This document shows positions 107 to 27,168 of a stretch of DNA of 27,168 bases, piece after piece. The DNA comes from an uncultured virus (IMG/VR IMGVR_UViG_2061766007_004178) (taxonomy: Duplodnaviria; Heunggongvirae; Uroviricota; Caudoviricetes). The translations under genes were made by a program, and so were the position numbers. The first letter of the stretch is position 1; every line of letters begins with the position of its first letter. The stretch lies in IMG/VR virus record IMGVR_UViG_2061766007_004178; one strand, given 5' to 3'. The notes beneath the pieces are model-generated. The model had not been told where the DNA came from and searched no databases. It saw only the letters and a list, made by a program, of their open reading frames with translations.

Positions 107-2461
107 TTAATTCAGTTTGATTCTGCCGCAGATATTCTGGTATCTCGGAGGTATGCCGCCGTTGGCGATCGTCCTGCTCCAATTGCCGAATTCGTATCTG
201 CCGCTGGTCTGCTGGACCCATTCGACCCAGCTTGCCCTTCTGAGCGCGTCTACGATCCTCATGGCGTCGTTCGAGCTTATGTTATAGAACTCGAATACGC
301 CGTTCGAGCGCAGGATAGGCTGCGCGCCCGCCAATCTGGCGAGCTTCGTCAGATATTCGCGCCTCTCCGGCTCAGTGAGCTCGAAGGCTTCGAGAAGCGA
401 TTCCTGCAGCAATTCGCCGATGGTTTTCTGCGCGTCGGCGTCTTGGATGACCATGACCGGGAAATCGATGTCCCAGCCGAACATCTCGCCTAACGCGTAC
501 ATCCTATGCCTGCCCTCGATGCCACCGATGTCCTCGATCGAGCTGAAGCTCACGTATGGGAGCGGAAGCTTTTTGTTGAACTTGAGTATGACGTCTTTGA
601 TATGGGCTATCTGCCTTTCGTCTTTCGATATGAAATCGATTATCTCGTCAGGCGACGTATCCTGGGCTTTGCCACAGAGCTCGAAATACTGGGTCGGCGT
701 GATCTGGGCGATCGTGTACATCGCGCTTCTGTAGCGGCCGTCGTCGCTGCCGTCGAGCAGGTCTTGCGTCTGAAGCGTGCTGGCTTTGCGCGTGTCTATG
801 ACGTCTTGGCCATTCGCCTCTTCGGTTCCGTAATCCTTGAACTCATGGTCGTCGTCAAGATACTTGATGCCTTCCTCTAATGACAGCTTTTTGCTGGCGA
901 TTTTCAGCTTGAGGTCTTTCAGTTTGTCGAGCAGACCGGCGTTCCTGACTTCCTTGAAGATGAGGTTTTCGGTAGAGAATTCGCTGCCGGTGGCGCTGTG
1001 CAGGCCTTGCTGCCTCAGCTCATACAATCTGTTTATGTAGTCGTCTATCTCTTCGTCTCCGTCGGCGATGTTGTCGCTCGCGGATTTCACGAGCGCTTTC
1101 GCCTCTTCTATCCAAGGCGCGGCTGCTTTGTCGATGGCTTTCTGGTCGATATCGGGGACATAGCTTTCAGTCGGCTCTTTTATCCACCTGTCGTACATGA
1201 TGGAATAGACGCCGTTGCTGATGAGGTTGCTGTTGTCGGCCATTTCGATATAGGTCTCGACGGGGATGCCGTAGAAGGAGATGTCGTATCTGCTTTCGAA
1301 TATCCTGCGGTACGCGTTATATAATTTCTGGTACAGCTCGGATTGTTCTATGCCTTCTGGCGTCTCTGCCACGAGATGCACGTCGAGGTCGCTGTCTTTC
1401 GTGTAATTGTAGCTGGCGTTCGAGCCTGCCAAAATGACGTCTCTGATTTTCAGGCGGACGCCGTCTTCGAAGAGCATTTTGATGTATTCGTTGGCGATAT
1501 CCTGCACTTTCTGCCTGACTTCAGGCTTAAGCTCGTCGCCGTCGAATATCTTCTGGTTTAGTTCGTTGTGTTTCTCGATTGCTTCGTTCATATCGCTTCC
1601 CTCTAGGCTTTCGGCGTAATGCTTGCTTTTGTTATGCAGATAAGCTCCGCCGCATGTCGTATAGACTTTACGCGTGTTTTTCAGGTCCCTTATCTCTGGC
1701 TCTGGGTCGCCATAATGCCAGTCAGGGTCGTTTTTGATTTTGATCGGCTCATCGGTGATGGTATAGCTCCAATCACTGAGGTTCGGCGTTCTCGTCTGCG
1801 CACGCCCGCTCATGAAATTGGCTGCGAAATTGAATGCCTTGCTTCTATCGTCGAACAATGGCGTATCGTATCAGCTGTGCCCGCCGGCGGTTNNNNNNNN
1901 NNNNNNNNNNNNNNNNNNNNNNNNGCGATTTTTGCCGATGAGAATATGGCGTCTGATGCCGTCTGGTCTATAAGCTACTATTCGGTAAAACTGATCGGTC
2001 TTTCCCGATAGCTTGAATTTAATATTGCCGCCGGATTGGCTTGCGGCCTGCTTTTTCNNNNNNNNNNNNNNNNNNNNNNNNNNNNTCAGGTCATCCAGCT
2101 CATCTTCTGGCATCAGCGCGTATTTGTCGCAAGCCGATGAGTATCTGTCCGTGAAAAGCTTTATTCCGGCCAGCATGTTTCTTATGTCATCGATTGAATA
2201 CCCATATTCGCTCATAAGATGCATTTGCAGGTGCTTGGCCAGCGCATTCCATTTCATTATGACGGCCGCGATGAAACGACGGCAGATATCCGCTATTTCG
2301 GCATCTTTTTTGACGAGCGTCATATCGTCGAGCGCGTATCTCAAAGCGGCGTTCGTGAGTATGATGCCGCGTCTGAGCATATTAAGGCCGACGGCGACTT
2401 TTTTGAAGTCTTCTTCCGTTGGGACGCACTCTGCAACTGTCGGCACTTTCGGCATCAGCAT
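107..2461 (-). CDS. Multidomain protein (~780 aa): unknown N-terminus, pol-beta-type nucleotidyltransferase, ParB/Srx-like domain; in-frame TGA at 1871-1873
   Basis: ORFs 1871..2461 and 107..1858 join in frame through TGA (GHS*YDTPLFDD); motifs ILAGSNASYNY..SDLDVH and LPY..EGRHRMYAL. Confidence 0.75.
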
Positions 2462-3417
2462 TAGCCTTCCTCTTTCTCTTCGTTGTCCTTGCGCATTTCG
2501 GCGGCTAGCTGCTCAGCTCTGGCCGGAATGACGAATTTCTTATTGCAGGCATCGCAGCAGCGACCGCTGTGTTTGTACGGCTCTGGATTATTGCCATAGC
2601 CGATGCAGTCTTCGCCGCAGATGCAGCATGTGTATTCTCTGTCTGGATCTTCGGTCAGGCATTCTCCATAGACGTTAATGTCCGGGAAATCCTGGCTGAA
2701 TTCGTTTTCGTTATTGTTTTGCATATGATTTTTAGGTTTTACGATCAATGGCGATAGCGCATCGAAGTCGCTGCGCAAAATAGCCACCACTTTGTTTATC
2801 TCCGTAATCGCGGTGCCGTTGAAATAACCCGCATAGCCGGTTGGAAGGCCTTCTAAATCCGGCACGCGGATTATGCCGCTGATGCCGAACTTCATCGGGT
2901 ATCCGCCGCTCGTTCTCTGGTCCGCATCATAAATCGTTATCTGGTCATCTGTCAAGTCTGGCAGCAGTCATTTGAGTGCTCCGACTTTATCGGCTGGGCT
3001 TTGAAGTGAGATCGACGCACGTTTCGCCAGCAAAAACGAAACGATATCGTTGAATGATACCGTGATTGGCTTCGGAGGCTGCTCTGAGTCAACTTCGCCT
3101 CTGAGCGTCTTTTCGACGTCTTTGGCGGCTTTCTGCCTGAAGTATTCTCTGCGCTCTTCGGCCAATTCGGCAAGCTTGGCGTCGTAGCCCGCTATTCGGG
3201 CCGCTATCGCCGCTTTCTCCTTTTCGGCCGTCTTTATCTTGTTAGCCACGGTATTGGCGTGCTTAGGGTCTGTGTCGCTGGCATAGCCTGCGATTCTGAT
3301 ATCCGTGTCTTCGAGGCTTTTCAGCGCCTGCTCTTTCTTCTGTTTAAGCACAGTTACCTCGGCATCTATGATCAAAGGACGCCTTGCGGTTATGGTTTCA
3401 TTCAATTCGAAACTCAT
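2461..3417 (-). CDS. Hypothetical protein (318 aa) with coiled-coil N-terminus and C-terminal Cys-rich Zn-binding module; in-frame TGA at 2968-2970
   Basis: ORFs 2968..3417 and 2461..2955 join in frame (ALK*LLPDLTDD); CCICG..GYGNNPEP..CCDAC; AAGGAG RBS before 3417 and none before 2955. Confidence 0.7.
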
Positions 3418-3428
3418 CGCCTGGCTCC

Positions 3429-5774
3429 TTATTTCATCTGTCTGGCGTTGATGGCCCTGAAGTTGGCGACCGCCTCTTTGTCTTTGAGGTCGGCGTCGGT
3501 CAGCCTATCATCGTACTCTTTGTTGACCTGAGCATCCGGAGCAGCTTCGACGTCGGCGAATTTCTTGCGCTCTTCCTCATGCTTGACGTTTAGGTCGTAG
3601 TCCATGACCTTAACGTGGTTTTTGTCATAGAGGATGCCGTCGTCATAATAATATATGATATCCGAAGGCTTAAGTTCTTGGACATTGTCATGGTCGGTGA
3701 GGTTCTTCAGAGAATATATCGAGCAGTTTTCGCCATTCACTCTGAGAAGCGCTTTTAAGATGTCTTCTTTATTTGAGCAGAAGATGTTCTGAGGCCTGAC
3801 GTAATAGCGTTTGACGTAACGCTTGGCTTCGTCCAATCCAACGCTCTCTTCGATGCCGTTTTCAATTTGGTTTTCAGACAGGCTTTCCGTTTTCGGCACG
3901 ATCCTGCCGATCATATGAGTTATCCTGTCTATCGTATCTTTATCGCTGACGCAGGCTTTGAGAGACTCCTTAATCAGGTTTTCCGGATAATTAAGCTTGT
4001 TGACGATATGATCTTTGAGCGTTCCGACGAACGCTGCGTCTTTCTTTAGGCAGACCGCGAAAATCAAAGCCATCAGATAGTCCGCTGCTGGGTCTGTGCC
4101 TGGGGCGACGAATGTTATGGCTATCTGCTGTATGAGCGCCTGCGCGTCATTCGCAGCAGCGACTACGTTGAGAAGCGAGGCGCTGAAATCTGCCTCATTG
4201 AATTTAATGGCAGCTTTCGCTGGCTGCGCGGCAGGTTGTGCCGCAGGCTGCGGAGTCGGCTGCGCTGATGGGGCCGAGATCAATCCGCGCTGCATCATCT
4301 CGTCTTCGATGACTTTCAAAGCGTCGGTATAGCCTTCTGACCTGCAGACTCGCAGATTGAACCTGAGTTTCTCATCTGAGGCGGCTTTCGCGTTGAAATT
4401 GCGGGCTGGCTGACGTCTGTTCAAGAGATTGTTGAACTTGAACATCTTGTCTTTCTGCTCATACCAGTCCAAGTGCGCTTCGGTCAGCTGTTCTTCTGGC
4501 TGTTCTTTCGATTCGCTCAGGTCATCATCTGGCCTGCTCGCTTCGGCGGCGTTTTTGAGCTGCCCGTCTTCTTGCTGGACCCATGTCTCTTTCTTGATTG
4601 AGCAGAGCTTATTGTCTGTATCGCAGTCGATGCTCTCTGATACTCTTGCGATCGGATTATCTAAAATATCCTGCAAAACCGTATCCAATGGCTCGCCGTA
4701 ATATTCGTCTTCCGCCTCGAAAGCGTCGCATTCTGGCCACCAGTTCAGGTACAGGTCCAAGAAATTGTCACCATCGTCGTATTCGATGACATTCTGACGA
4801 AGCATCGAATCGTTTTCCATGGCGGCTTCTAAATCTGCGCCGCTGTCATAACCGAAGTTTTTCGCATATTTATCTAATCTCGCATGGTATTCGTTTTCTA
4901 GCTTTTGATTAAACGCTGGGTCATATTCTAGCTTCTCGTTCAAATTTTCGTCCCCACGATTGTCTAGCATATATTTGGCGAAGCCTTCCATCGTTTCACC
5001 GCCTTTTAAATAGCTGTAGAATGTGCGCTCAGCGTGCATGAGCTTTAAGAATTTGGTCAGAACTTTAGCCATTTCGTCGACTGTCTTGGCTGCGTAAAAC
5101 TCATCTAAGATATCATCTGGGCAGTCGAAACTGTTTATGTAATTCTCGGCCTTTCTATAGCTTTCTGCCAGGCTTTCGCCCATGCCTTCGCTTTCTCCGC
5201 CTGACGCGCCGGCGTCACCGGCTCCGTCTGAGGCTCCGGAATCAGCCGCAGCCGCATCGGNNNNNNNNNNNNNNNNNNNNNNNNNNNNNNNNNNNNNNNN
5301 NNNNNNNNNNNNNNNNNNNNNNNNNNNNNNNNNNNNNNNNNNNNNNNNNNNNNNNNNNNNGCCGCAATAAGCCGATGAATACGGCTTTTTCTTCTTTTTG
5401 CCTTCGGTCAGGCCGCAGCTCTCCCAGCAGGAGATCTGCTCGCAGTCCGCTCTGTTGAACAGGTCGCGGGTGGCTTCGATTACATGAGGATCGCATGAGC
5501 TGCCGTTGAACAGGCCGGTTTTGCACATATTGGCCGTTTGGTCGGTGTTCGGGACTTTGATGAGGTAAATCCTCGTCTGCTCGTCGCATCCGCAGTCGCC
5601 ATACTGTCTAGCCAAATCGTCGTATGCCGACTGCATCAAAGCGTCGTCTGTGTCGAACGCCTCGACGTAGCCTTGGTCGAAGCTGCCGTGCTTCAGCAAG
5701 ACGATGAACAGGCTATCGAGGTCCTCTACCTCGACAGGCTCCCAATTTTCGTTGATTTCGATTTTCTTTGCCAT
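3429..5774 (-). CDS. Large acidic multidomain hypothetical protein, possible virion internal protein
   Basis: 781-aa ORF with AGGAG RBS; modules separated by L-x-E motifs and AQP-type linkers; one N gap. Confidence 0.7.
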   Translation of the reverse strand: MAKKIEINENWEPVEVEDLDSLFIVLLKHGSFDQGYVEAFDTDDALMQSAYDDLARQYGDCGCDEQTRIYLIKVPNTDQTANMCKTGLFNGSSCDPHVIEATRDLFNRADCEQISCWESCGLTEGKKKKKPYSSAYCGXXXXXXXXXXXXXXXXXXXXXXXXXXXXXXXXXXDAAAADSGASDGAGDAGASGGESEGMGESLAESYRKAENYINSFDCPDDILDEFYAAKTVDEMAKVLTKFLKLMHAERTFYSYLKGGETMEGFAKYMLDNRGDENLNEKLEYDPAFNQKLENEYHARLDKYAKNFGYDSGADLEAAMENDSMLRQNVIEYDDGDNFLDLYLNWWPECDAFEAEDEYYGEPLDTVLQDILDNPIARVSESIDCDTDNKLCSIKKETWVQQEDGQLKNAAEASRPDDDLSESKEQPEEQLTEAHLDWYEQKDKMFKFNNLLNRRQPARNFNAKAASDEKLRFNLRVCRSEGYTDALKVIEDEMMQRGLISAPSAQPTPQPAAQPAAQPAKAAIKFNEADFSASLLNVVAAANDAQALIQQIAITFVAPGTDPAADYLMALIFAVCLKKDAAFVGTLKDHIVNKLNYPENLIKESLKACVSDKDTIDRITHMIGRIVPKTESLSENQIENGIEESVGLDEAKRYVKRYYVRPQNIFCSNKEDILKALLRVNGENCSIYSLKNLTDHDNVQELKPSDIIYYYDDGILYDKNHVKVMDYDLNVKHEEERKKFADVEAAPDAQVNKEYDDRLTDADLKDKEAVANFRAINARQMK

Positions 5775-5870: not shown

Positions 5871-5883
5871 TAATTTAGCAAAT
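5871..5883 (-). promoter_or_regulatory. Putative phage late promoter ATTTGCTAAATTA (copy 2)
   Basis: Exact repeat of the motif, directly downstream of the terminator at 5891-5918. Confidence 0.65.
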
Positions 5884-5890
5884 GATAAAT

Positions 5891-5918
5891 AAAAAAGCCC
5901 GTTTTCGGGCTTTCTTTT
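5891..5918 (-). terminator. Intrinsic terminator (possibly bidirectional)
   Basis: AAAGCCCG-AAAA-CGGGCTTT perfect stem followed by T tract. Confidence 0.85.
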
Positions 5919-5939
5919 TCAGGAGGCTTTTAGTGTCTT

Positions 5940-6639
5940 TTATTCGTCGCTTTCGACCGTTTTCTCAGGCTCGATGCCGTCGTCGATCTTCTCATTCTCG
6001 ATAGGCTGCTCNNNNNNNNNNNNNNNNNNNNNNNNNNNNNNNNNNNNNNNNGAAGTCTACGAAGAAATCGGCGACTTCAGGTTTTTCGAACTTTTTGGCG
6101 CCTTCGGCCTCTGGCGCATCGAATTCGAACGGCGTGTTGAACTGACCATCATCCGCGGCGATGGTCTCTTCGGCAGGAGCTTCGTCTTTAGGTTCTTCTA
6201 TAGCTGGGATCTCGACTTCGGCAGGCGGTATCTCGGACTCTTCTGCCTCAGCGGCTTTTTCTTCTGGTTCTGTTGGTTTTTCGCCGGCAATCGGCACGAT
6301 GATCTCGCCGTCGCCCTCAGCGTCTTTAATGGTGACGTTGCCGTCTTCGCCGATGTGGATATCGACGTCTTCCTTAAGCGCTTTGGCCTCTTCTGGGATA
6401 TCGAGGTAATCTTTGGCGTCGAGATGGAGCTCGATTTGGCCTATGCAGACCAAGTATGCGTCAAGGAGCGCCTGAAGGAGCTCTTCGACTTTTTTGGTCC
6501 CGCTGAAGTTCTCGCCGATGGACCTGATGGTCTCTTTGAGATAGCCGATGTCCTCCCAGCCTCTGCTGACGAAATCGGTCAGGAATGAGACAGGCAGCTT
6601 CTCTTTGGACTCGTTCAATGTTTGCTTTTCGATTTTCAT
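5940..6639 (-). CDS. Acidic hypothetical protein
   Basis: ATG 6639 with AGGAG RBS; after the N gap the acidic frame continues EQPIENEKIDDG..VESDE-TAA (5940). Confidence 0.7.
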
Positions 6640-6659
6640 GTTCTATAGTCTCCTGTATT

Positions 6660-7864
6660 TTATAACATATATTGGCTCGNNNNNNNNNNNNNNNNNNNNN
6701 NNNNNNNNNNNNGGAATCTCTCCATATGAACCAAACATAGCCTTTAAGCTTCAATGGGCTGCATCGATTCCAGTTAGTCTGGTCCTCGATATCATCATCA
6801 GACATGACGATTACGTTCGTGTACCCGTTCTGCTCGATGTTTTCCATTACCTCTGGGAAGCCATGTGTGCCGCCTTCATGCCAATCGGGACGGTCTTTGC
6901 CATTCGCGTTTGGGTCATCAGGCGGGTTCGTATGCAGATGGTTCGAGAAGTAATATAAGTCGATCTTCTTAATTTTATGTCTGGCTACGAAGCCATTCAA
7001 TACATTGATGGCTTCGACGCCTTTTCTGACGTCATCTCGTCCCCAAGAGCCAGACTGATCGAAATAGATCGCGAGAGATGGCAGAGTCTTCTTGTCTGGG
7101 TAGTCTTGTCCAGGCATGAGGTAATCGGTGCCGGCGTAGCTGGGATTAGGTCTCAGCCAGGTGTCTTCCGGCTCTTTGGCCGTGCCGATTTGGCTCTTCA
7201 TGGCCATGAATAGATCATTTGCGAAGTCTTCGAAATCCAATATGCCGCCGCGGGCTTTTCTAGCCGCTTCTTTGGCCGCGTTTTTCTCGGCCTTTATGCG
7301 TTCTTTCTCCGCTTTCGCGCGCTCTTGATCCTGATAGGCCGCGTCAGCTCTTATGTCGTCGAGGTCTTTTTGGATTTCGTCTGGATCGTTTATTTTCTTG
7401 ATGCGCTCTTTGCGTTCTTCTTCGGTCTCTTGGCTCACGTCTTCGTCTTTGTCTTTCACTGAAGAGTTTTTAGGCATAATCAGGCCATTGACCGTAAGTC
7501 GCTCGTCTTTGCTGCCGTTTTGGCCGGCCTGCCCATCGGCCTTATCGCCAGCGCTTTGACTGCCGTTTTTCGCGCGACCGGAGCTATTCTGCTCTGGGCC
7601 GGCGCTCGATTGCGATTGCTGGCTGTCGCCGTTCTGCTGGCCTTGGCCGCTCTGATTTGGTTTACTCTGCTGGCCTAAGTCGTTTTTGGAGGCGTTTTCA
7701 GAGCCTTGAGCGCCGTTTTCGCCCGCTTGCTTACTTGGCTTGTTTTTCGTCTGATCGCATTCGTCTGGATCCAGCTGAACAGGCCTAGTCTTGGATGTGA
7801 GCAGCGTCGAAAGCGCGTCTAAAGCGCCTTTCTTTTTCTGTGGATTGGTTAGGTTGATTGCCAT
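6660..7864 (-). CDS. vWA (MIDAS) domain protein with Q/G/S-rich N-terminal linker, DUF2201 C-terminal-like
   Basis: LAIYFDQSGSW (DxSxS), GGT, VIVMSDD; the end lies after an N gap (probably SQYML-TAA at 6660). Confidence 0.75.
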
Positions 7865-7873
7865 ATTCGTCTC

Positions 7874-8552
7874 CTATAAGACGTCGATGTCTCCGTTTTT
7901 GATTCTATCTATGATCTGCTCGATCTCTCGTTCGTCGACGCCTTCTTTGTCATAGCGCATCATGACCTCATTCCAAGCGGCTTTGTAGTCTGGATCGATT
8001 TCTTGGTCGTTTCCGGAGCCGCCGGCGCCGTTTTCGCTCTCCAAGCTTTGGCTGTCTGTGTCTGNNNNNNNNNNNNNNNNNNNNNNNNNNNNNNNNNNNN
8101 NNNNNNNNNNNNNNNNNNNNNNNNNNNNNNNNNNNNNNNNNNNNNNNNNNNNNNNNGCTTTGCGAACCGTTGCTGTCGGCATCGGCGTTTTCGCTGCTGG
8201 AGCTGTCACCACCAGCGCTGCCTTGGCCGCTCTGCGCCTGCTGATCGTTTTTGTTTTCGTTGTCTTTATTGTCACCCTCACCCTCGCCTTGCTGGCCTAC
8301 GCCGCCTTGGCTGGATTGCTTTTGCTGCTGTTTCTGCCTAAGCTGATCTAAGACATGGTCTGGGTCATCGAATTCGAACTCGTCTTGGCTGTCCATATCA
8401 GGCGAATTCGGCATCTCAGGCATATCGAGCTCAGGGTCTATTTCGACCTCTTGCCCCATCATCGGTGGCATTCCGGCTATGCCGCTGGCCGCCCTTGCCT
8501 TAAGAATGGCCTGCAACGCGTCGATTTTAGCTTGTTTCTCTGTCGCTGTCAT
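7874..8552 (-). CDS. Low-complexity Q/G/D/S-rich protein between the HExxH and vWA genes
   Basis: ATG 8552 with AGGAGG RBS; the two ORF halves flank the N gap 8065-8156; ends IDVL-TAG. Confidence 0.65.
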
Positions 8553-8563
8553 AAATGGCCTCC

Positions 8564-9292
8564 TTAATCGGCTTTCTCCGCCATAATGTCGGCAAGGATG
8601 TTNNNNNNNNNNNNNNNNNNNNTAGGATCATCATAAGTCCTCATTATTTCGTTGTAGGCATTGATGTATTCTGGCGTATGGGTTGCTTTCTTTATTTTGA
8701 TTTTAGGTTTTTTCGGAGGGTTTTTCTTCATGTTCTCCTCATGTTCTTTCATGAGCAGATCATACATCTCCTCCAATGTTTTGTTCATCCACTCTGGCTT
8801 ATCCATCTCAAGGACGAGGCCGCCGACGACTCTGCCGCAAATCGACAGATTGTGTGCGACTTGCTGATCGTGCTTATTATAGCCCTCTCTGGACAGATCC
8901 CAGTCTTCGGCTTTGTTCGCCAAATCACGGACGGTCGGATTGCGGAGCTTCTGCTCGAAGTCTTTGTGATGCGCTTTTAGATAATCATAAAGGCGCTTTT
9001 CGTGAACGAGCAAAAAGTGCAGCAATTCATGTCTGATTACGAGACTGAGCTGATCTTTCGTACGCTGCGATTCGCCTTCTGAGAACATGCCTGGGTTGAC
9101 CACGATCTCGCCGGTTTCCGGAAACATCGCGGCAACATCTATATAATGGCCATGGTAAACGTCGGCGCATACCAAATCGAATTCCTGCAGGCGTCTGGCA
9201 TACGTGCCATACCCTTGTTCGATAAGCAGCGAAACGAGATAGGCCTTTCTTTCGATGTCTGATTTATTCATTCGTTCTGTGATCTGCTGCAT
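8564..9292 (-). CDS. HExxH metallopeptidase-like protein (DUF2201 N-terminal-like)
   Basis: IVVNP..LVIRHELLHFLLVH..ANKAED; adjacent to AAA+ and vWA genes. Confidence 0.75.
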   Translation of the reverse strand: MQQITERMNKSDIERKAYLVSLLIEQGYGTYARRLQEFDLVCADVYHGHYIDVAAMFPETGEIVVNPGMFSEGESQRTKDQLSLVIRHELLHFLLVHEKRLYDYLKAHHKDFEQKLRNPTVRDLANKAEDWDLSREGYNKHDQQVAHNLSICGRVVGGLVLEMDKPEWMNKTLEEMYDLLMKEHEENMKKNPPKKPKIKIKKATHTPEYINAYNEIMRTYDDPXXXXXXXNILADIMAEKAD

Positions 9293-9308
9293 AACGCGCT
9301 CCTTACGC

Positions 9309-10576: not shown

Positions 10577-10590
10577 GTATGTGGCTCCTC

Positions 10591-11644: not shown

Positions 11645-11648
11645 GCGT

Positions 11649-15586: not shown

Positions 15587-15588
15587 TA

Positions 15589-17151: not shown

Positions 17152-17153
17152 GT

Positions 17154-17450: not shown

Positions 17451-17463
17451 TTTTCGAAATCTC

Positions 17464-17691
17464 CTAATTGTCTATTCTTTTCAGCAGCGCGATCGGGTCT
17501 TCGTTCTCGAGCTGCCAGGCGCTGTTTTGCACCTCAGTCACGTAGGCGAGCAACGATCTGTCTAGCTTATGCGTGATGCAGTGCGCCATGATCTGATACG
17601 GTTCGAACGTGTGCGAGAACAGCTCTTTCACGAACTTGACCCTCGTCTCGAACGTTCGCTCGCCGAGTGGGAATTTATCTGTAGTCGCCAT
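17464..17691 (-). CDS. Hypothetical protein (75 aa)
   Basis: MATTDKFP.. start with AAGGA RBS. Confidence 0.55.
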   Translation of the reverse strand: MATTDKFPLGERTFETRVKFVKELFSHTFEPYQIMAHCITHKLDRSLLAYVTEVQNSAWQLENEDPIALLKRIDN

Positions 17692-18079: not shown

Positions 18080-18887
18080 AAGCGTCTCTCTCCTCCGTCG
18101 TGTTCTGGAGCATTTTGTCGAGCACGCCATCATCGATGTTCGTGGCTTGATAGCAGTCCATTATCTCGTTTTTGATTTCTGAGTAGAATTCCTTCAGCAA
18201 TATCCTGACGTATCCGGACATCGATTTAGGGAGCTTCCACAGCATCAGCGTCGGCAAGTCTGAATCGAGCTTCTTCTTCATCTTCAGCGAATTGGCCGCG
18301 TTGAGCAATAACGATATCTTAAGCTTTTTGTAGTCGACCGACCTTGGGCTGAACGGCGATTTCTTGAGCACCTCATCGGCGAGGTCTCCTATGTTCTCGA
18401 AAGACGCCGTGATGTATGTCTTGAAATCCTCGTTCACGCCGAGCGTCGCCCTGACGCTTTCCCTAAGCTGCTCTCTGAACGTCCATGAATCGAATTTCTT
18501 GGACGTGAACTGCTCGTCGAGTATCTCTCTGAAGGTCTCGTTCTGGTATTCGATTTTCATCGGATACAATAAGGCTTTCATGTAATTGAGGCACGATTTG
18601 ATAGGCCTGATTTCTTTGCCTTTGATGGTCTTGCCTTGGTTCCATTGATTTTTCCTCAAAGCGAAGAACAATCTGTTGGCCGCATAGAAAGCATATGGGT
18701 CATAGTCCTGGAAGTTGTTGAACATGCATTTCTTGATGGCCAATGCCTTAACAACCAATCACAGATAATTGTAGACCGTGTTTTCTATTTCGGGGTATTG
18801 CCCAGGCTCGGCAATCTTAGGAATGTTCTGGTCGATGTAAATACACAGGTCTGTGTATTTCTTCGCCGGGTCCTTTTTCCATTGCAT
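18069..18887 (-). CDS. Hypothetical protein (272 aa), possible divergent sigma factor (gp55-like); in-frame TGA at 18759-18761
   Basis: ATG 18887 with GAAAGG RBS reads MQWKKDP..VYNYL*LVVKALAIKK into ORF 18069..18758; region-2-like spacing; next to gp46/47-like genes. Confidence 0.55.
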
Positions 18888-18911
18888 ATGTGTAATACCT
18901 TTCTATAGTTG

Positions 18912-18929
18912 TTTTATTATACAATAAAA
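18912..18929 (-). promoter_or_regulatory. TATAAT -10 element inside an inverted repeat
   Basis: TTTTATTGTATAATAAAA upstream of ATG 18887; the -35 region is in an N gap. Confidence 0.55.
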
Positions 18930-18962
18930 GGCNNNNNNNNNNNNNNNNNNNNNNNNNNNNNN

Positions 18963-20821
18963 TTAGTTTATCGAGCTTATTCCGTCTGCGTTTTTGACTA
19001 TCTTGATTTCTGAATCGATAGGCAGCTCAAGCTCCGAAGAGTGATGGCTGACGATGAACACCGATTCGATGTCCGTCAGCTCGGATTCGACAAGCTTCAT
19101 GACGGCTGAGCAGCTCTGTTTATCCAAGAAATCCGTGATTTCGTCGAGGACCAGGATGTTCGCGCTGGAGCTCAGGTAGACGTTCAGCATGTCTCTGATG
19201 GCGAATTGCAGTATGAGGTCGACCCTTTGTTTTTCGCCGCCGGATAAGTTATCGAACATCTTGCCGCAATAGGATATGTCCAAGGCGTTTCCGTCGAGAT
19301 AGACGTTGAGGTCTCTGGTCTCGAATACGATTTCGCTGTAGTCTTTGGCCTTCTTGTCTATGTAGCTGATTATGTTCGTCAGCAAATAGCCTCTGAAGTC
19401 GCGCTTGGCCAAGGAGTCCATCTTCTTGATGACCGCGAGGTGAGCGTCGAGATCCGTCTTATTGGCGTCTGTCAACCTTTGGATGTTCTCCATGCCGTTT
19501 ATCGCTTTGTTCAGCTCGGCGACCCTGTCGGTCAGGCTTCGCTGATGCTTGTCCCAGTTCGCTTTATCAGACACGAGCTTGTCGTATTTCGATTTCTCTT
19601 GGTAATAATACTGCGAGTTGTCGTTGTAATCATTCATGGCCCTGTCGTAGTCGGCTTTTGCTTTACTTGCGGCAGAGCGGGCGTCGGACTCTTTTTGGTC
19701 GTAGTCTTCTTTGAGCTGCTTTTCGTAAGCGGCTTTTTTGCTCTCGACCTCATTGACCCTGGCAATGAGCGCAGGCAGACTTTCCGTAAGCCTTCTGATC
19801 TCAGATTCTTGGTTGGATGTGTCTGGCTTGACGGCGTTCGGAAGCTTCTGGCCGCAGGTCGGGCAGACGTCTTTGACCGCCTTCAATCTGGCGACCTCAG
19901 CTTCGAGGTTCCTGATGGTGGTCTCGGTCGCGAGCTTCTCTTGCCTGACCGGGCCGATGTTGCTCTGATATTGGGTATAAAGATTATTTACTTGAGCGGT
20001 CTTCTCTTGGCTGATCTTAAAGAGCGCCTCATTCGCCGCAGATGCGGTTTCGCCGAGCGTTTTCTTGGCGCTTTCCAGACGCTTTATCTCGGCGTCGAGG
20101 AAAGCCAGCCGCTTGNNNNNNNNNNNNNNNNNNNNNNNNCCTCTTCTATCTCTTTCTGGGCGAGGTCCCTCTGCCTGATGGCTTCAGCGAGCTTCGAACC
20201 ATTGAGGAGCAATCCGTCCTCGCAGTCCCTTATCTGTCTGCCAAGCGCCTCCGCCCTGAGCTGGATTTTGTTCTTGATGTCTTCGATCATGAAATCCGTT
20301 CCGGTCAGGTTCTCAAGCAATTCTTTGCGCCCCGATGGGCTTAATTTGCTGAACGCATTCGGCATGCCCTGTCCGATGATGACCGTCGACGCAATGTAGT
20401 CTTTGGTGAGATCCGGCAAAAGATTGCTGAGCTTTTTCTCGGAATCCCTGAACGTGCCGCCTGAGACGTCGGCATCATTTTGGATGATCTGCAAGTCGGA
20501 TTTAGGCTCGAAGGTCCTGGTTATCTTGTATTCGTCGTTGTTAACTTTGAAAATCAAAGTGACGTAGCCTTTGGCGTCGTCTTGGACGTTGACGTTCTTC
20601 AGGTTCTTCTGAAGGCCGGTCAAAGTCTCGCCGGTGATCGCATAGCAAATGGCGTTCCAGATAAGGCTTTTGCCTGAGCCGTTGGAGAACGCGTTGTCCT
20701 TCTTGAAATGGTTCTGGCCTGAGACGAGGCAGAAACCTCTGCTCTTAAGGTCGAGCTCGGCATGGCCGTAGCTGCCGAAATTATGCAATATGATTTTTTC
20801 GAAATCTAAGAAATTCGACAT
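18963..20821 (-). CDS. sbcC: SbcC/Rad50 (T4 gp46-like) recombination ATPase
   Basis: NFGSY, NGSGKS (Walker A), CPTCGQ zinc hook, LSGGEKQR signature, LVLDE, VSH; halves joined across gap 20116-20139. Confidence 0.92.
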
Positions 20822-20838
20822 TGGTTACCTCGCTCTTC

Positions 20839-21767
20839 TTATTTAAGTATCTCAGCCAATTCGGCTTCGAGGATAGGGGTGTCTTCCAGCTTCTCTCGGC
20901 AGCACTCGGCGAACTTGACGTACTGGTCGACCGTCAGGTCTGTGACGTCGAATTCCGTCTCGCCGTCCACGGTCATTCTGACGATGATGGTCCTAGAGAT
21001 AATGATATTGCTCAAAGTCGGCAGCAATTCTTTGACGGTTGGCACTAAGGTGTCTCTGCACTTGATTTGGACGACTGCGTTGTTCTTGAGCTTTTTCAGC
21101 TGCTCGATGTCTTCTTCGGCGTCTATCGTAATGTTGTAGAAATTGAACGCATATGGGTTCTCAATCAGCTCATACGTCCAGCTGTCGGTATCGAACAGCA
21201 TCGCGTTATGGCTGTATCGAAAAGCGTCTTCGCCGAGGTCTNNNNNNNNNNNNNNNNNNNNNNNNNNNNNNNNNNNNNNNNNNNNNNNNNNNNNNNNNNN
21301 NNNNNNNNNNNNNNNNNNNNNNNNNNNNNNNNNNNNNNNNNNNNNNNNNNNNNNNNNNNNNNNNNNNCGAAAAGGTCATTGTGGGAGATGAGCAGCCTTT
21401 TATGTTTCTTTTCTGGGAAATATTCGGAAACGTCTTTTCTCATGCTCTCTTTGATATAAGGCAAAAAAGCGATTTCGAAATCGTCGAATTGAACTAAGGT
21501 CGGCTCATCGACTACATGTCGGTCGGCCCGATCTTGTCTGAGAACCATCGCCGAGTTGTAATGCAAGTNNNNNNNNNNNNNNNNCTCGCAAAAACAAGCC
21601 GGATATATCTCTTTCTCAAGAGCGGTCAATTCTTGCTGCGTCAGATTGGCTTTATCGAAGAAATCTCCTGCGCAGATGACGCATTTGCAGCCGTTTTCCT
21701 GCGCGGTCTTTTCGGCCCAATTGACGGACTTGATTACGTTTTCAAGCCTTTGTGTGTATTTGTCGCC
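20839..21767 (-). CDS. sbcD: SbcD/Mre11 (T4 gp47-like) metallophosphoesterase nuclease (start lies in gap)
   Basis: RLENVIKSVNWA..VICAGDFFD, FLPY, LISHNDL; immediately upstream of sbcC. Confidence 0.85.
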
Positions 21768-22446
21768 NNNNNNNNNNNNNNNNNNNNNNNNNNNNNNNNN
21801 NNNNNNNNNNNNNNNNNNNNNNNNNNNNNNNNNNNNNNNNNNNNNNNNNNNNNNNNNNNNNNNNNNNNNNNNNNNNNNNNNNNNNNNNNNNNNNNNNNNN
21901 NNNNNNNNNNNNNNNNNNNNNNNNNNNNNNNNNNNNNNNNNNNNNNNNNNNNNNNNNNNNNNNNNNNNNNNNNNNNNNNNNNNNNNNNNNNNNNNNNNNN
22001 NNNNNNNNNNNNNNNNNNNNNNNNNNNNNNNNNNNNNNNNNNNNNNNNNNNNNNNNNNNNNNNNNNNNNNNNNNNNNNNNNNNNNNNNNNNNNNNNNNNN
22101 NNNNNNNNNNNNNNNNNNNNNNNNNNNNNNNNNNNNNNNNNNNNNNNNNNNNNNNNNNNNNNNNNNNNNNNNNNNNNNNNNNNNNNNNNNNNNNNNNNNN
22201 NNNNNNNNNNNNNNNNNNNNNNNNNNNNNNNNNNNNNNNNNNNNNNNNNNNNNNNNNNNNNNNNNNNNNNNNNNNNNNNNNNNNNNNNNNNNNNNNNNNN
22301 NNNNNNNNNNNNNNNNNNNNNNNNNNNNNNNNNNNNNNNNNNNNNNNNNNNNNNNNNNNNNNNNNNNNNNNNNNNNNNNNNNNNNNNNNNNNNNNNNNNN
22401 NNNNNNNNNNNNNNNNNNNNNNNNNNNNNNNNNNNNNNNNNNNNNN

Positions 22447-22717
22447 ATAAAGCGACTTTGACGATATCCTCATCGGAATAAGTGTCAGGCTTATAGATAT
22501 TGACTATCTTGAAGAGCTCGCTGCAAAGCTTGAGGGCATGCTCGCAGAGCGCGCCGTCGTAGGCGCCTTCCGTGTAGATTTTGTAAGGCTTATTGAAAAA
22601 ATCGGCCCTTGGCGACTCAAGGTATTTGACGAATGGCGTCAAGTCCGTCTTGGCGTTCTCGGCGAGAAGCTCAAGGTATTTCGTCTTATTCAGATAGATC
22701 TGTTCTTCGTTCAGCAT
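22447..22717 (-). CDS. HD-domain phosphohydrolase-like protein (5' part only)
   Basis: DFF.KP..GAYDGALCEHAL..DIVKVAL, the pattern that precedes the HD motif; the rest is in the gap. Confidence 0.55.
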
Positions 22718-23555
22718 TATTTCCCTCCTCTGATCAGGCAGTTGCCTACGGTCGTGATGCTTCGTTTGGTGTTATGCTTGGCGCATTCGCCGATGGCATA
22801 GATATTATGGACGCGCGTCGTCTGATGCTGCGTGTTTATCTTAATGGATCTGTNNNNNNNNNNNNNNNNNTGATGGATCTGTCTTGGTCGAGCTCGACCA
22901 TTTTTTGGTCGATGCCGTTGACGTCGGGCGTTTTGCCGAGCGCCAAGACCAAAGCCGAGCAGTTGATCGAGTCGTACGTATCGAGCATGACTTCGCACAG
23001 CTTGCCTTCTTTGTTGTTCTTGCATGCAGTGATGCTGCAGTTCGGCAGNNNNNNNNNNNNNNNNNNNNNNNNCTTGCTCATCTTGGCGTCGCAGCCGAGC
23101 TTCATCTCATGGCTGCACAGATAAACGTATTTGAACCTCTTTGACATGGCCAGCGCGTATTTCACCGCATCGGCGTTCGCGCCGTAAACGACCGCCGATC
23201 TGTTTTTCGGCAGCGTTTCCAGGTCTCTTGGGTTATAGCAGACGTTGACGTTTTTGAAAGCGGTCGTTTTGATTGGGCTCGAGCCGGTCGCGATGACCAG
23301 ATTCTTGCCTACGACCGTGCGTCTGTCTTTTAAGGTCAATATGACCAATCCGTGATTGAAAGACGAGTAGATGGACTCGCCTTCGACCTTGACCGTATCG
23401 CCTAATTTGTCGCCGTCTTTGACGAACCTGAAATGCCTGCTCACGAGAGCGACTTTCTTCTCAGGCGATTTGGCCTTGACGTATTCGCATAGCGCGATGC
23501 CTTCCAGCGACGCGCCCAATACGATTATGTCGAATAATTCGTTCAGTTGCTGCAT
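22717..23555 (-). CDS. Degenerate thioredoxin reductase-like FAD/NAD(P) oxidoreductase homologue
   Basis: DIIVLGASLEG, LVIATGS, AVVYGANADA, LALGKTP, then after gap QTTRVHNIYAIGEC..TAA 22717; no CxxC. Confidence 0.7.
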
Positions 23556-23578
23556 ATAGGTATACCTATTATATTATA
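23556..23578 (-). promoter_or_regulatory. Tandem TATAAT boxes plus perfect 14-bp palindrome ATAGGTATACCTAT abutting the start codon
   Basis: CGTATAATATAATAGGTATACCTATATG read on the minus strand. Confidence 0.5.
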
Positions 23579-23582
23579 CGGC

Positions 23583-24497
23583 CTATTTGGCCTGTCTATG
23601 GAGGAAATTCTCCATGATCTTCTGATGGTTTTCCATGCCCTGCCATTTGTTCTTCACGTCATATACGCGGTTTTCTTTGGTCCAAAGGGAATAGTAAGGG
23701 CATCTATCGTGCGCATTAGGGTCTTTCGGCTGATTTGGGTTCGTCGGGCAATACGTGCACCAGTGGCATAATGTGGTCGGGTTCGGCACGAATTCGCCTG
23801 CGTTGATGCCCGTAAGCAATTTCTCTATTTTGGCGAGGCCGCGCTTCATATAGCCTTTCGTTCCGGCTGGCTGGACCGTGTCGCAGAATGGCAGGTCATA
23901 AGCGCAGCTGATCTCTTCGTTGATTACGCCGTACAGCTGCTTGATCGCGATTGTGTAGACGACGAACTGAAGTGGCGTCGGCAGGTCTTCCTTCTCCGCA
24001 GGCTTAGGCCAGGTTTTGATATCCTGGCAGTAATATTCGCCTGTGTTCTTGTTTCTCAGCAAGCGGTCTATCTTGCCTGAGAACACGTAATTCATGTGCT
24101 CGAACTTAAAAGGCACCTCAGCACCGACTATCTCAAGCTCGGAATGCTCTTTCATGAACTTCTCAAGACGATAGATGCCGGATTCGAGATAGCCGTAGAT
24201 CTTCTCTTTGTAGAACCTGCCAGTTTTATCTGGCTCGTGCCATTCTTTTGGGAATTTGTGCTCTATCGCGAGCGATTTGAGGATGATGCCGTTCTTCAGG
24301 CTTATGTAATCTATCGGCTCGCCTGCTTTTATGCTGTTGGCGATATGCTCTTCAGCGTCATGTATCATAGTGCCGACGTCGAGCGCGATGCCTGGCGTGC
24401 TGATATATGGGCCTTCGACGTACTGGAGCAGATAACGCCAGCCGCATTGCTTGTAAACGTCCATTTTCGAATAGGACATCTTATTGTTCGCTGCCAT
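23583..24497 (-). CDS. PD-(D/E)XK nuclease, Cas4/AddB-like with Fe-S cysteine staple
   Basis: SYSK..YKQC..RY, GT.IH, EVPF, GKIDRL, DIKT, LQFVVY, CHWCTYC..C. Confidence 0.88.
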   Translation of the reverse strand: MAANNKMSYSKMDVYKQCGWRYLLQYVEGPYISTPGIALDVGTMIHDAEEHIANSIKAGEPIDYISLKNGIILKSLAIEHKFPKEWHEPDKTGRFYKEKIYGYLESGIYRLEKFMKEHSELEIVGAEVPFKFEHMNYVFSGKIDRLLRNKNTGEYYCQDIKTWPKPAEKEDLPTPLQFVVYTIAIKQLYGVINEEISCAYDLPFCDTVQPAGTKGYMKRGLAKIEKLLTGINAGEFVPNPTTLCHWCTYCPTNPNQPKDPNAHDRCPYYSLWTKENRVYDVKNKWQGMENHQKIMENFLHRQAK

Positions 24498-24510
24498 CGC
24501 TTGCTCCTTT

Positions 24511-25382
24511 CTATATGATTGTGTTGGCTATCAGATAATCTATCTGCGCCGTTTTCGACATGTCCAGTAAGCCTGATTTGAGCTTCAGGTCGATTCCGGA
24601 AAGGAAATGCAGCAGATATTGCAGTCTGTCGAGCGGGAAACCACTCCAATCTTTCTTAAGACGCCAGAAATAAGTGTCTTTGATCCCCAAATCGGATGCC
24701 GTCCTTCCGGCCTCTGGCCTGGACAAAAGTATGTTCTTGACTTTCTGCAAGATCACACCGACTAAAGAAAGAAAATCGAAGCTGACGCTCTCATGCCTCA
24801 TGAATTCGAGGACGAACGGCTTGTTGTTCCTGATTATCGCATCAGCGACGTCGAAAATGCTGACCGCGTATAAATCGCTGTCTGGGTCGAATTTAAGCGC
24901 CGCCAGAACCTTCTTGTGGTCCGTCTTGTCGAACAGAAGCACTTTATCGAGCTCGTTGATTATCTTATATATGTCGCCGTTCGCCGCATCATAAAGCCAA
25001 TCGACGTCGGCTGGCTCNNNNNNNNNNNNNNNNNNNNNNNNNNNNNNNNNTCGATTATGTAATCTTCTACGAAAGGCTTTATTTTCTTGTCTATCTTATT
25101 GCAGACGACGACGGTGTTCTTCAGATTGGAATAGTCTATCAGCGCTTCTTCGAAGGTATCGACTTTCATGACGCTCAGCTCATCGGTCCTTTCCATGACC
25201 AAAGCCAATGCGGAAGTCTGCTCTTGCAGGCTGTTGATGCTCGTTTTCGTCAGGTTGTTGATGTCGCAGATCGCATCGATATATTGGTCAGCGATGAAAG
25301 AATTGTCGCTGCATAGGAAAATGATGAAATCATCGTCCACGCATTGCGATTCTATCTGTTTTTTCAAATCTATCAAAGTCAT
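24511..25382 (-). CDS. holA: DNA polymerase III delta (HolA)-like clamp loader subunit
   Basis: MTLIDLKKQI.., then after gap ANGDIYKIINELDKV.., SIFDVADAI, DLKLKSG; follows dnaX and holB. Confidence 0.7.
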
Positions 25383-26182
25383 TATCGTGTCAATCTCCAC
25401 AGATTGTCGAAATAGTTCAATAAAAAGCTGTCTTTATTGAGCGTTTTATTGAATGCTTTCGCGCGCTGTTCGGCGGTATAGCTGTAAATCCTGAAGCTGA
25501 GATCGTCTCCGGTTTTTAGATAGCTGTCGAAAGCGACCGCGAGCAAAACCTCGAAGAACAGGTCGAAATCGAATTTCTTGACGTCGTCCTTGGTGTTTAT
25601 CTTCGTGCATAAGCTAATCGTGTTCGCGTAATTCGACGTGCGCACCAAATCGACGATTTTCTCGCAGAACGCGAAAAGGCCATCGAGGTTGTCATCTGGC
25701 AGATTGTTGAGCTGCCCTGGCGTTTTGCAGATTTGGTAGATGCGCTGGTCTGAGCAGTTTATCGCCCAGTCGAACTGGCTGAGCTGCTCTGGGGTGTAAT
25801 CTTCGAACGTGTATTTCACGCATCTGTTCAAAATCGTCGGCAAGACGCCGATTTCCGAACGAGCGGTCAAAATGACATACATGTTGGCGGAAGGCTCTTC
25901 GATGAACTTCAGTATCTTATTCTGCTGCTTTTCGTCTATGACGTTGAGGTCTATGATATAAAGCTTAGGAACCGGACACTGATAGTAATCCATCAGCTTT
26001 TCACTGGTGAAATCGCTTGAGATGTCGACGTGGTCCAATCCGAGCTGCTGCGCGAACCTGGTCGCGAGCCAGCTTTTGCCGCATCCCGCAGGGCCTAAGA
26101 AAAGAATGGTCCTCGGAGCGCTTTGCAACGTATAGCCATCTAAGATCTTTACGAGTTTTTCTTGTCCTACTACGGCGTTCAT
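25382..26182 (-). CDS. holB: DNA polymerase III delta-prime (HolB)-like clamp loader subunit
   Basis: VVGQ, GPAGCGKS, QNKILKFIEEP, LPTILNRC; ATG 26182 overlaps the dnaX stop (TAATG). Confidence 0.8.
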   Translation of the reverse strand: MNAVVGQEKLVKILDGYTLQSAPRTILFLGPAGCGKSWLATRFAQQLGLDHVDISSDFTSEKLMDYYQCPVPKLYIIDLNVIDEKQQNKILKFIEEPSANMYVILTARSEIGVLPTILNRCVKYTFEDYTPEQLSQFDWAINCSDQRIYQICKTPGQLNNLPDDNLDGLFAFCEKIVDLVRTSNYANTISLCTKINTKDDVKKFDFDLFFEVLLAVAFDSYLKTGDDLSFRIYSYTAEQRAKAFNKTLNKDSFLLNYFDNLWRLTR

Positions 26183-27168
26183 TATTTGCAAGCCCTCAAT
26201 AAGTAGGCCTCGATGGTCGATTTATAAGAAGTGTCGTATTTGATATTGAGCTTGATTTCCAAAAGGAGATCGACGAAATTCTTGAACCAGCTCAGACTGT
26301 CGTTGATTCGGATAGTCTGCTGAACGGCCGGCTCAAGATACGCCGGGAGGTTCGTAAGCTGCATATTGTTGAACAGGATGTACTTGGATAGGTCTAAAAC
26401 GAACTCCAAATAGTTGTCGATGAAGTGCTTCAGATCGACGCCAGACGAATAAAGCTTGTCGATGATCTCCATAATAAGCTGCGCGTCTTTTTCCTGCACG
26501 CCAACGGTAAGCTTGAACATGGCCTCATACGATATGTCATTAATAACTTGCTTGACGTTATCCATGCTGAGGTCAGTCGAAAAATTAGCGCACTGGTCCA
26601 GCTTCATGATGGCGTCACGCATGCAGCCATTAGAGGTTTTCGCCAAGAAATCGCAAGCCATATCGTAATTGGTGAAGCCTTCTTGCTTGCAGATAAATTC
26701 CAGCCTGGCTTTGATGTCGGCCGTATCTATTTTCGTGATGTTATATCTTTGGACCCTGTTCAAAATCGTCTGCGGGACTTTGTTAGGATCGGTCGTGCAG
26801 AAGATATATATGGTATATTCAGGTGTTTCTTCGATGCTTTTCAGGAAGGCCTGCCAACCTGCTGTGGTGATGGCATGGCACTCATCGATGATGAATATCT
26901 TGTATTCGCCGTCTAAGGCGCGCTCATTGGCGGAATCGATTATGGTTCTGACCTGATCGACGCCGTTGTTCGATGCCGCGTCGATTTCGATAGGCTCGCC
27001 GACACCTTTATTGAGCTTATTGGCGAATATCCTAGCGAGAGTCGTTTTGCCACATCCTGAATCGCCAGCCAATAAATAGGCATGCTTAAAATTGCCTTTT
27101 TCGATGGCTCTGGCTAAAATCTGAACGGTCGTGCTCTGGCCACAGACGTCTTCGAATGTGGCTGGCCT
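26182..27168 (-). CDS. dnaX: DNA polymerase III gamma/tau (DnaX)-like clamp loader ATPase, 5' truncated by window edge
   Basis: RPATFEDVCGQ, AYLLAGDSGCGKTT, EIDAASNNGVD, IIDECH, FLKSIEE, GCMRDA. Confidence 0.93.
   Translation of the reverse strand, partial: RPATFEDVCGQSTTVQILARAIEKGNFKHAYLLAGDSGCGKTTLARIFANKLNKGVGEPIEIDAASNNGVDQVRTIIDSANERALDGEYKIFIIDECHAITTAGWQAFLKSIEETPEYTIYIFCTTDPNKVPQTILNRVQRYNITKIDTADIKARLEFICKQEGFTNYDMACDFLAKTSNGCMRDAIMKLDQCANFSTDLSMDNVKQVINDISYEAMFKLTVGVQEKDAQLIMEIIDKLYSSGVDLKHFIDNYLEFVLDLSKYILFNNMQLTNLPAYLEPAVQQTIRINDSLSWFKNFVDLLLEIKLNIKYDTSYKSTIEAYLLRACK

Follow-up and report, generated by a model that had tools for sequence, protein, structure and literature searches.

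Tryptophan-coding TGA in motif-headed units and in a candidate late sigma factor gene of a T4-like jumbo phage clade

Phages are believed to time lysis and assembly by recoding a stop codon in their late genes. The IMG/VR record IMGVR_UViG_2061766007_004178 of an uncultured tailed phage (Caudoviricetes), a stretch of 27,168 nt analysed here at its full length as "the window", raises the question whether a regulator of late transcription can itself stand behind such a code change. A preliminary description had proposed that in-frame TGA codons of the window are confined to putative late genes and to the gene of a putative late sigma factor (the 18887 gene, hereafter the sigma-like gene), and that they might act as a timer. 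In this study, we have examined this proposal with relatives from IMG/VR and metagenomes, of which five viral records (G001 to G005) were compared whole, together with 80 metagenome loci. We consider it probable that the window stems from a phage that reads TGA as tryptophan (Trp), in which the replication block is neutral to the code, whereas late units and the sigma-like gene are gated by it.

The preliminary tally of TGA codons was reproduced on recounting: six lie in frame, all on the minus strand. The 13-mer ATTTGCTAAATTA heads the operons that hold five of them, and the sixth is codon 43 of the sigma-like gene. That they are read as Trp is best seen in the latter. Codon 43 is TGA in the window and in the related loci L001, L002 and L003, and TGG in L004 to L007; across 71 full-length sequences the residue is invariant, encoded by TGA in 30 and by TGG in 41. 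Columns 3, 82 and 217 of the same gene exchange TGA and TGG likewise, giving four swapping Trp columns in all. In ortholog alignments, TGA is paired with Trp in 30 of 37 cases for G001, 54 of 73 for G003 and 43 of 62 for G004, and TGG is paired with it at about the same rate (181/240, 198/282 and 113/153). In the standard-code record G002, by comparison, an aligned ortholog exists for only one of 181 in-ORF (open reading frame) TGAs, and TGA terminates 40 of 209 ORFs. Coding density rises under genetic code 4 (TGA = Trp), from 0.798 to 0.881 in G001 and from 0.84 to 0.951 in G004; the rise is seen in the window, G001, G003, G004 and G005 and is absent in L004 to L006. TGA aligned to Trp, TGA not used as a stop and a denser coding under code 4 are thus all found, and on this comparative evidence TGA is to be read as a Trp codon in this phage sub-lineage.

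The remaining codons of the window (named by their first base; Table 2) fit the same picture to varying degree. Homology to the G005 and G001 orthologs runs on past TGA 11314, the AAA ATPase with TGA 9635 aligns to the 415-residue ortholog of G005 over residues 2-329, and the gene with TGA 1873 aligns to an 803-residue single ORF of G003 over residues 11-784. TGA 2970 has no alignable ortholog at the codon and three others lie at non-conserved residues, as would be expected if the in-frame TGAs were true stops, sequencing errors, selenocysteine codons or traces of broken genes. Against such an origin, which we regard as next to negligible, stand the exchange of TGA and TGG in dozens of independent contigs, at columns where Trp is invariant, the homology across the codons and the fact that no gene ends in TGA: every stop of the curated window genes is TAA or TAG.

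The second step of the proposal concerns the division between gene classes. Counted by hand in the window, the replication block (without the sigma-like gene) is free of TGA, and the five other codons fall in the two motif-headed units (Table 1). The preliminary statement that the Trp codons of dnaX, holB, holA, the Cas4-like gene, sbcCD and topA are all TGG holds (21 TGG, no TGA), and its warning of small counts was equally apt. Fisher's test of the motif-headed units versus the replication block gives p = 0.066, or p = 0.20 if the sigma-like gene is added to the replication block, and the window alone is therefore not significant, which weighs against the proposed division.

Table 1. Records compared and their in-frame TGA/TGG codons by gene class. 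In the relatives, classes were set by the G002 ortholog and codons were counted from the first aligned residue; the window was counted by hand.
Record	Length	CheckV completeness	tRNA genes	Code	Replication block	Sigma-like gene	Post-topA block
Window	27,168 nt				0/26	1/4	5/30
G001	146.5 kb	64%	39	recoded	1/51	4/0	2/3
G002	221 kb	95%	33	standard			
G003	51 kb	23%		recoded	2/52	4/2	23/44
G004	43 kb	19%		recoded	0/18	2/1	28/47
G005	33 kb	14%		recoded	2/55	3/1	1/10
Window and four recoded relatives, pooled					5/202	14/8	59/134

With the four recoded relatives added, the spread of TGA over gene classes, which the preliminary description had suggested counting, is clearly not even: the pooled counts differ between post-topA and replication block with p = 8e-16 and between sigma-like gene and replication block with p = 4e-13, values that overstate independence since the genomes are akin. 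In G001, replication and nucleotide genes have a raw TGA/TGG count of 9/92, with four of the nine TGAs in N-terminal extensions that orthologs do not share. The block of lysis and tail-fibre-like genes of this record has 45/97, and its three homing endonucleases have 20/10. The latter are its most TGA-rich genes (L044 1018-1626, 8/1; L041 1227-2054, 7/3; L041 2974-3783, 5/1). The recoded regulator gene recurs in all four recoded relative records and in 38 of the 80 metagenome loci, in support of the preliminary description. Beyond the first 10 codons of this gene TGA is present in 36 of the 80 loci, and these have TGA/TGG counts of 72/28 in the sigma-like gene, 25/268 in the flanking replication genes and 28/52 in the post-topA block; the other 44 loci have 0/111, 1/364 and 0/80. 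TGA is thus unevenly used: structural and lysis genes are rich in it and replication genes poor, with the loci L119 and L111 as exceptions.

TGA is also missing from the replication block as a stop. None of the 93 replication-block genes of G001, G003, G004 and G005 ends in TGA, while four TGA stops of the G002 replication block recur in standard-code loci. A block without TGA as either sense codon or stop is readable under both codes, and TGA is avoided there even at a G+C content (GC) of 31-33%. This avoidance, together with close standard-code relatives that are interleaved with the recoded ones, points indirectly to a standard-code host. A host that itself uses code 4, the differences between genes having some other cause, would explain why the phage DNA examined yielded no suppressor. 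At about 31% GC, however, TGA would then be expected in all classes, and the pooled replication block has five TGA versus 202 TGG; in addition, close relatives use TGA as a stop. Likewise, section 8 of Borges et al. (bioRxiv 10.1101/2021.08.26.457843) reports in-frame TGA in about 90% of genes in code-25 phages of code-25 hosts and in 26-71% of genes with standard-code hosts. We hold a code-4 host for very improbable.

Several observations speak against a strict division. In L119 (9/12) and L111 (4/4), conserved Trp positions are encoded by TGA even in replication genes, among them SbcD and SbcC, and the two loci together contribute 13 of the 25 replication-block TGAs of their group; a code-neutral replication block is consequently not universal in the family. 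G001 and G003 likewise have a few replication or nucleotide genes with a single TGA (NrdD codon 246, PhoH codon 156, SbcD codon 232). Finally, the gene at 17603-19615 of G004 has a count of 7/3 and, with the homing endonucleases, demonstrates that the TGA bias of the sigma-like gene is not unique.

The units after topA are assigned to the late class by a motif and by the genes into which they run. ATTTGCTAAATTA occurs exactly three times in the window, on the minus strand only. The three best terminator hairpins of this strand each have a copy directly behind them. Its core, GCTAAATTA followed by ATTG, TATG or AATG and generalised as GCTAAATTA(W)(W)TG, heads the post-topA unit in the window and in G001, G002, G003, G004 and G005. 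It also heads the terminase-portal unit (G003 41784; G004 27900), in a context that matches that of the third copy in the window, as well as the protease-capsid unit (G002 87813 and 88224; G004 35068) and the adaptor unit (G002 91608). In G001 it precedes both tail-fibre-like genes and homing endonucleases (61217, 62976 and 120987). Orthologs of the first unit of the window directly follow topA in G002, G003 and G005, and those of the second unit sit just upstream of terminase and portal in G002, G003 and G004. Beyond the position of the window's left end, G002 encodes terminase, gp20-like portal, prohead protease, gp23-like capsid, adaptor, sheath and tube. Based on these T4-type head and tail genes, the window is part of a T4-like jumbo phage with relatives of about 220 kb, within a sub-lineage that reads TGA as Trp. 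To judge by its placement, the motif is a promoter-like signal specific to the phage, with a bias towards late units. The late character ascribed to the motif-headed units finds support in their continuation into virion genes. It is weakened by looser copies of the motif before replication units of G001 (117033, ahead of dUTPase-DnaC-DnaB, and 114788), owing to which an equation of motif and late expression is not established.

The sigma-like gene lies within the replication block and encodes a protein whose orthologs are 65-87% identical. Of 1277 candidates, 871 proteins belong to the family at E <= 0.001, and at 50% identity it forms 502 clusters. In the database, the protein of the window is entered with 224 residues instead of 272, which indicates that the gene was called short of the TGA; standard-code gene callers cut this protein short. 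Two structure models were built, from 37 sequences (predicted local distance difference test, pLDDT, 78.5) and from 105 diverse sequences (pLDDT 90.1). The latter predicts two helical domains with a weak linker between them, the N-terminal half being sigma region-2-like. An exhaustive VIA-align search places sigma factors at the top for both models: the best rows are ShbA (Z 8.2), 7d7d_F (Z 8.0; root-mean-square deviation 3.1, 96 aligned), SigB (7.6), pro-sigma-K (7.4) and SigC region 2 (7.3). Many sigma-2 domains score at Z 6-8. Judged by the titles and chain letters of the entries, sigma factors make up 26 of the 50 best rows of the second model, with a similar share in the first, and several of the alignments extend over both domains. 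The entry 7D7D shows the late activation complex of T4, in which gp55 has a sigma region-2 homology domain, according to the portion of PMC7892883 used here; we infer that chain F is gp55.

The preliminary name of sigma factor therefore has support at the level of the fold and none from sequence matching. Pfam and PHROGs have no match for the protein, no Pfam family is found for any of 105 diverse members of its family (E <= 0.1), and the Sigma70_r2 and Sigma70_r4 models are unmatched by the window protein and by these members at the same threshold. A profile search of the PDB returned nothing relevant, and phrog_234 (gp55-type) matched nothing in G001 to G005 at E <= 1. Three further results count against a sigma factor: hhalign against T4 gp55 gives a probability of 0.1% with both alignments, Foldseek against the PDB finds nothing at E <= 0.001 with either model, and the fold scores are middling for a helical protein, given that VIA-align Z values below 8, or below about 13 for helical folds, may reflect a common arrangement. 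If the protein were some other helical protein, its TGA would be uninformative on the control of late transcription. The silence of families, profiles and hhalign, as well as a best Z of 8.2 within the cautioned range, agrees with this alternative, to which we assign an appreciable chance, somewhat short of even. It has to contend with sigma factors taking up roughly every second place among the top 50 rows for each of two independent models, with a promoter-like motif kept in all relatives and with the lack of any other detectable sigma factor or RNA polymerase in these. Indeed, searches of G001 to G005 (G002 being 95% complete) found neither Sigma70_r2 (PF04542) nor an RNA polymerase beta domain; a search for T7-like RNA polymerase (PF00940) gave no match but carries no weight, since its control matched nowhere. 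The phage thus seems to depend on the host polymerase, and the 18887 protein is the sole candidate specificity factor found. From the predicted fold, we think it rather likely that this protein is a sigma factor and a candidate for the late sigma.

Upstream of the gene lies an extended -10-like element, TTGTATAAT, which is kept in L001, L007, L074, L084 and L135 and is absent where the gene abuts sbcC (L002, L003, L004, L006, L123 and L132). A copy of GCTAAATTA without the upstream TTT is located just before the sigma-like gene in L001 (5866) and in L074 (at the end of sbcC), in both cases preceding a terminator and the TTGTATAAT element.

The TGA at codon 43 is persistent. Among the 71 full-length sigma-like genes, 33 have any TGA, and in 30 of these 33 Trp43 is TGA, deep branches included; the gene of the GC-rich window retains no other TGA. 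In addition, TGA in the post-topA block is accompanied by TGA in the sigma-like gene in eight of eight loci, while L100, L119 and L145 have it in the sigma-like gene and none among the few post-topA codons seen. On a quick tree the recoded state changes six times, at least two changes being forced by well-supported branches, and the code state has therefore flipped repeatedly. Recoded and close standard-code relatives are interleaved on this tree.

Such a pattern need not reflect regulation. AT-biased mutation of TGG to TGA could be passively tolerated in any gene that is translated after a decoder has appeared, the sigma-like gene being merely a middle or late gene. The base composition suits this explanation, since related loci have 28-39% GC (except L097, 0.49, and L148, 0.42), which favours TGA, and since late classes unrelated to one another have similar proportions of TGA (post-topA block 59/134, homing endonucleases 20/10, sigma-like gene 14/8). 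The window is a GC-rich offshoot (49.6%) of this AT-rich clade, with proteins up to 87% identical, and has correspondingly few TGA codons: six among 66 Trp codons, as mutation pressure predicts. The persistence of TGA43 and its presence in every locus with TGA in the post-topA block argue in the other direction, but shared descent may explain much of both, and they are only suggestive. On balance we deem passive tolerance the less likely explanation.

A reading of TGA as Trp in a standard-code host asks for a decoder, and here the search that the preliminary description had suggested for a phage suppressor came back empty. No transfer RNA (tRNA) with a UCA anticodon was found in the window, which has no tRNA gene at all, nor in G001, G003, G004 and G005, and RF-1 and tryptophanyl-tRNA synthetase (TrpRS)-class domains were absent from G001 to G005; both results weigh against the code-change reading. 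As G001 and the other recoded records are incomplete, the missing UGA decoder is a gap rather than an absence. The tRNA arrays of G001 and G002 include Trp(CCA) and no UCA anticodon, and the Rfam matches in G001 are all tRNAs, the window having none. When viral contigs were searched with the 3' portion of tRNA-Trp from G001, only G001 itself and a near-identical 42-kb fragment were returned. Scanning for YTTCARN loops with a T arm and with relaxed ARAGORN settings gave one match, on the other strand of a coding region in G004, which was discounted, and a tRNA-like piece of G001 (62216-62280) is weak and has a Thr-type loop. The G001 array (L040) also holds odd tRNA-like genes: 47549-47663 is 115 bases long with a long insert, and the anticodon loop of 48045-48118 is six bases long (TATTAA), with a two-base anticodon assigned by ARAGORN. 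No loop of either gene contains TCA.

The D stem of tRNA-Trp(CCA) has three pairs including a G.U in the recoded G001 (45918-45991) and four in G002 (207521-207597). It recalls the known D-arm suppressor variants of tRNA-Trp, and the weakened stem makes the G001 tRNA a possible UGA-reading variant. Because of this stem and because no tRNA(UCA) was seen, the decoder of the clade may be non-canonical. Concerning the host, no CRISPR or prophage link emerged; Shine-Dalgarno-like words precede 60-75% of ORFs versus 9-16% in the background; along with the TTGTATAAT element, they are weak hints of a host with an ordinary sigma-A and Shine-Dalgarno initiation.

For the preferred reading, in which TGA is Trp and expression of late genes is gated, we propose the following order. 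The replication and repair genes read alike in both codes, and the host ribosome would make them at once, as early products. A UGA decoder would then appear. The sigma-like gene, despite its place inside the replication block, would share the dependence on UGA, and its protein would be completed only at this stage and would direct the host RNA polymerase to GCTAAATTA(W)(W)TG. The motif-headed late units would be transcribed next; as these units, which continue into packaging and head genes, hold TGA-Trp codons, their messages would need UGA read-through once more for full-length products. Late transcription would then be locked behind the code change by a two-step gate, first read-through of the sigma-like message and then of the late messages, an extension that we put forward tentatively and think unlikely to hold in full. 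The scheme presumes a standard-code host, a sigma function, a late timing of the motif and a dependence that acts as a timer. The timer itself remains a hypothesis, for neither decoder nor host was found and the replication genes of two lineages contain TGA. The code-switch idea of the preliminary description has nevertheless gained in substance through TGA as Trp, a TGA-poor replication block and frequent TGA in units leading into virion genes.

The clade offers interleaved standard-code and TGA-recoded genomes with a replication block readable in both codes, as well as one regulator-like gene with the most persistent recoded codon. If this gene does encode a late sigma factor, late transcription would be expected to become independent of the code change once TGA43 is replaced by TGG43. 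The UGA decoder, which standard tRNA finders do not see in the clade, is a second point of interest beside the switch itself.

All genes of the window are on the minus strand (Table 2). The gene segments were curated by hand, since frames shift across several of the masked runs (2395 N in 25 runs). Such changes occur within single genes at 25018-25050 (holA), 20116-20139 (sbcC), 21242-21367 (sbcD) and 11011-11120 (gene 11560/11010, which is one ORF in relatives). The N runs hide indels or are not true to length, and ORF lists that span them are unreliable. On the plus strand, ORF 17694-17918 was treated as spurious, as were the ORFs that run across masked stretches, and other code-4 "extensions" (6463, 5994/5967, 7970/7952, 15465/15447 and 21167) are junk frames beside masked stretches.

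Some neighbouring genes deserve mention. The protein at 6713-7864 has a DxSGS stretch with the look of a von Willebrand A metal site (read by eye from the translation; no tool match); the MoxR-like ATPase is encoded two genes upstream, and the pair is kept after topA in relatives. In the protein at 2461-3417 conservation is confined to a C-terminal Cys-rich part (CCICGE...CCDACN), and the G003 ortholog, with 83 residues, consists of that part alone. The gene 2461..107 encodes a nucleotidyltransferase-like region (phrog_36119 at 1.3e-32; weak NTP_transf_2). G001 has two peptide deformylase genes (L039 5343-5810; L045 2594-3382), and the window has the ortholog of the second.

Table 2. Features of the window. 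In-frame TGA codons are named by their first base; functions of the motif and of the -10-like element are inferred from the sequence.
Feature	Coordinates	Strand	Evidence or remark
Replication/repair block: dnaX, holB, holA, PD-(D/E)XK exonuclease, sbcD, sbcC, small ORFs, peptide deformylase, topA	11632..27168	-	
Clamp-loader subunits	27168..26182 and 26191..25382	-	Pfam, PHROGs
PD-(D/E)XK exonuclease	24497..23583	-	Pfam, PHROGs
SbcD and SbcC pieces	across 21629..18963	-	Pfam, PHROGs
TTGTATAAT, extended -10-like element ahead of the sigma-like gene	18916..18924	-	read from the sequence
Sigma-region-2-like protein gene, 272 codons, one TGA (codon 43)	18069..18887	-	candidate late sigma factor
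TGA 18761, Trp43 of the sigma-like gene	18759..18761	-	aligned with invariant Trp
Peptide deformylase	ending at 14293	-	Pfam, PHROGs
Topoisomerase I (topA)	13863..11632	-	Pfam, PHROGs
topA terminator	11644..11621	-	
ATTTGCTAAATTA after topA terminator	11595..11607	-	exact match
First motif-headed unit: gene 11560/11010, MoxR-like AAA ATPase, unnamed genes	5875..11560	-	
TGA 11314, codon 83 of the gene starting at 11560	11312..11314	-	aligned to Y/L/T/F
TGA 10995, at conserved Trp	10993..10995	-	YAYW / YVYW in G005 and G001
MoxR-like AAA ATPase	10316..9309	-	AAA_5/AAA matches
TGA 9635, codon 228 of the AAA ATPase gene	9633..9635	-	aligned to F and E
Terminator before second unit	5916..5891	-	
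ATTTGCTAAATTA heading second unit	5871..5883	-	exact match
Second motif-headed unit, three genes (5774..3429, 3417..2461, 2461..107)	107..5774	-	
TGA 2970, codon 150 of gene 3417..2461	2968..2970	-	least certain of the six
TGA 1873, codon 197 of gene 2461..107	1871..1873	-	aligned to E
Terminator before third unit	91..68	-	
ATTTGCTAAATTA heading third unit	34..46	-	exact match
First gene of third unit	starts at about base 5, runs off the window	-	

Among known systems, the closest parallel is found in the Agate and Jade code-4 gut phages of Borges et al. That preprint already describes late-biased recoding, with early genes in the host code and late genes expressed after a change. As in our clade, in-frame TGA is aligned with Trp, recoded codons fall in genes for structure and lysis while the replication machinery lacks them, and homing endonucleases (in Agate) are strongly recoded; also shared are close standard-code relatives, AT-rich genomes that prefer TAA stops and repeated flips of the code state. 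Our clade differs in being T4-like, with relatives of about 220 kb, 33-39 tRNAs and no match in the GenBank phage collection by megablast (5.9 kb) or tblastn (sigma-like protein). It differs further in that no suppressor tRNA, release factor 1 (RF1) or TrpRS was found in its DNA; in the genomes of Borges et al. a TGA suppressor tRNA is reported for only 35% of those with code 4. The significantly biased families given in the parts of the preprint drawn on here are intron endonuclease, tail protein and membrane protein, with no sigma factor named.

The second parallel is the late transcription of T4, which uses gp55, gp33 and the gp45 clamp. Similar to gp55 as described in the portion of PMC7892883 used here, the 18887 protein is a small phage protein with a predicted sigma region-2-like domain. 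In T4 (NC_000866) gene 55 lies near genes 46 and 47, the homologues of sbcCD, and the sigma-like gene likewise lies near sbcCD. G002 has genes of T4 type for portal, capsid, protease and tail tube, and in both systems late units carry a short A/T-rich phage-specific motif. The differences are that the sigma-like protein has no sequence similarity to gp55 and is longer (272 versus 185 residues, with a second helical domain), that T4 uses the standard code throughout, and that the motif of the window, GCTAAATTA..., is not the T4 late promoter, TATAAATA. A literature search, mostly at the level of abstracts, returned no report of a recoded late sigma factor. Our interpretation thus amounts to the published model of late recoding in a new clade, to which a persistently recoded, putative late regulator would be the new detail.

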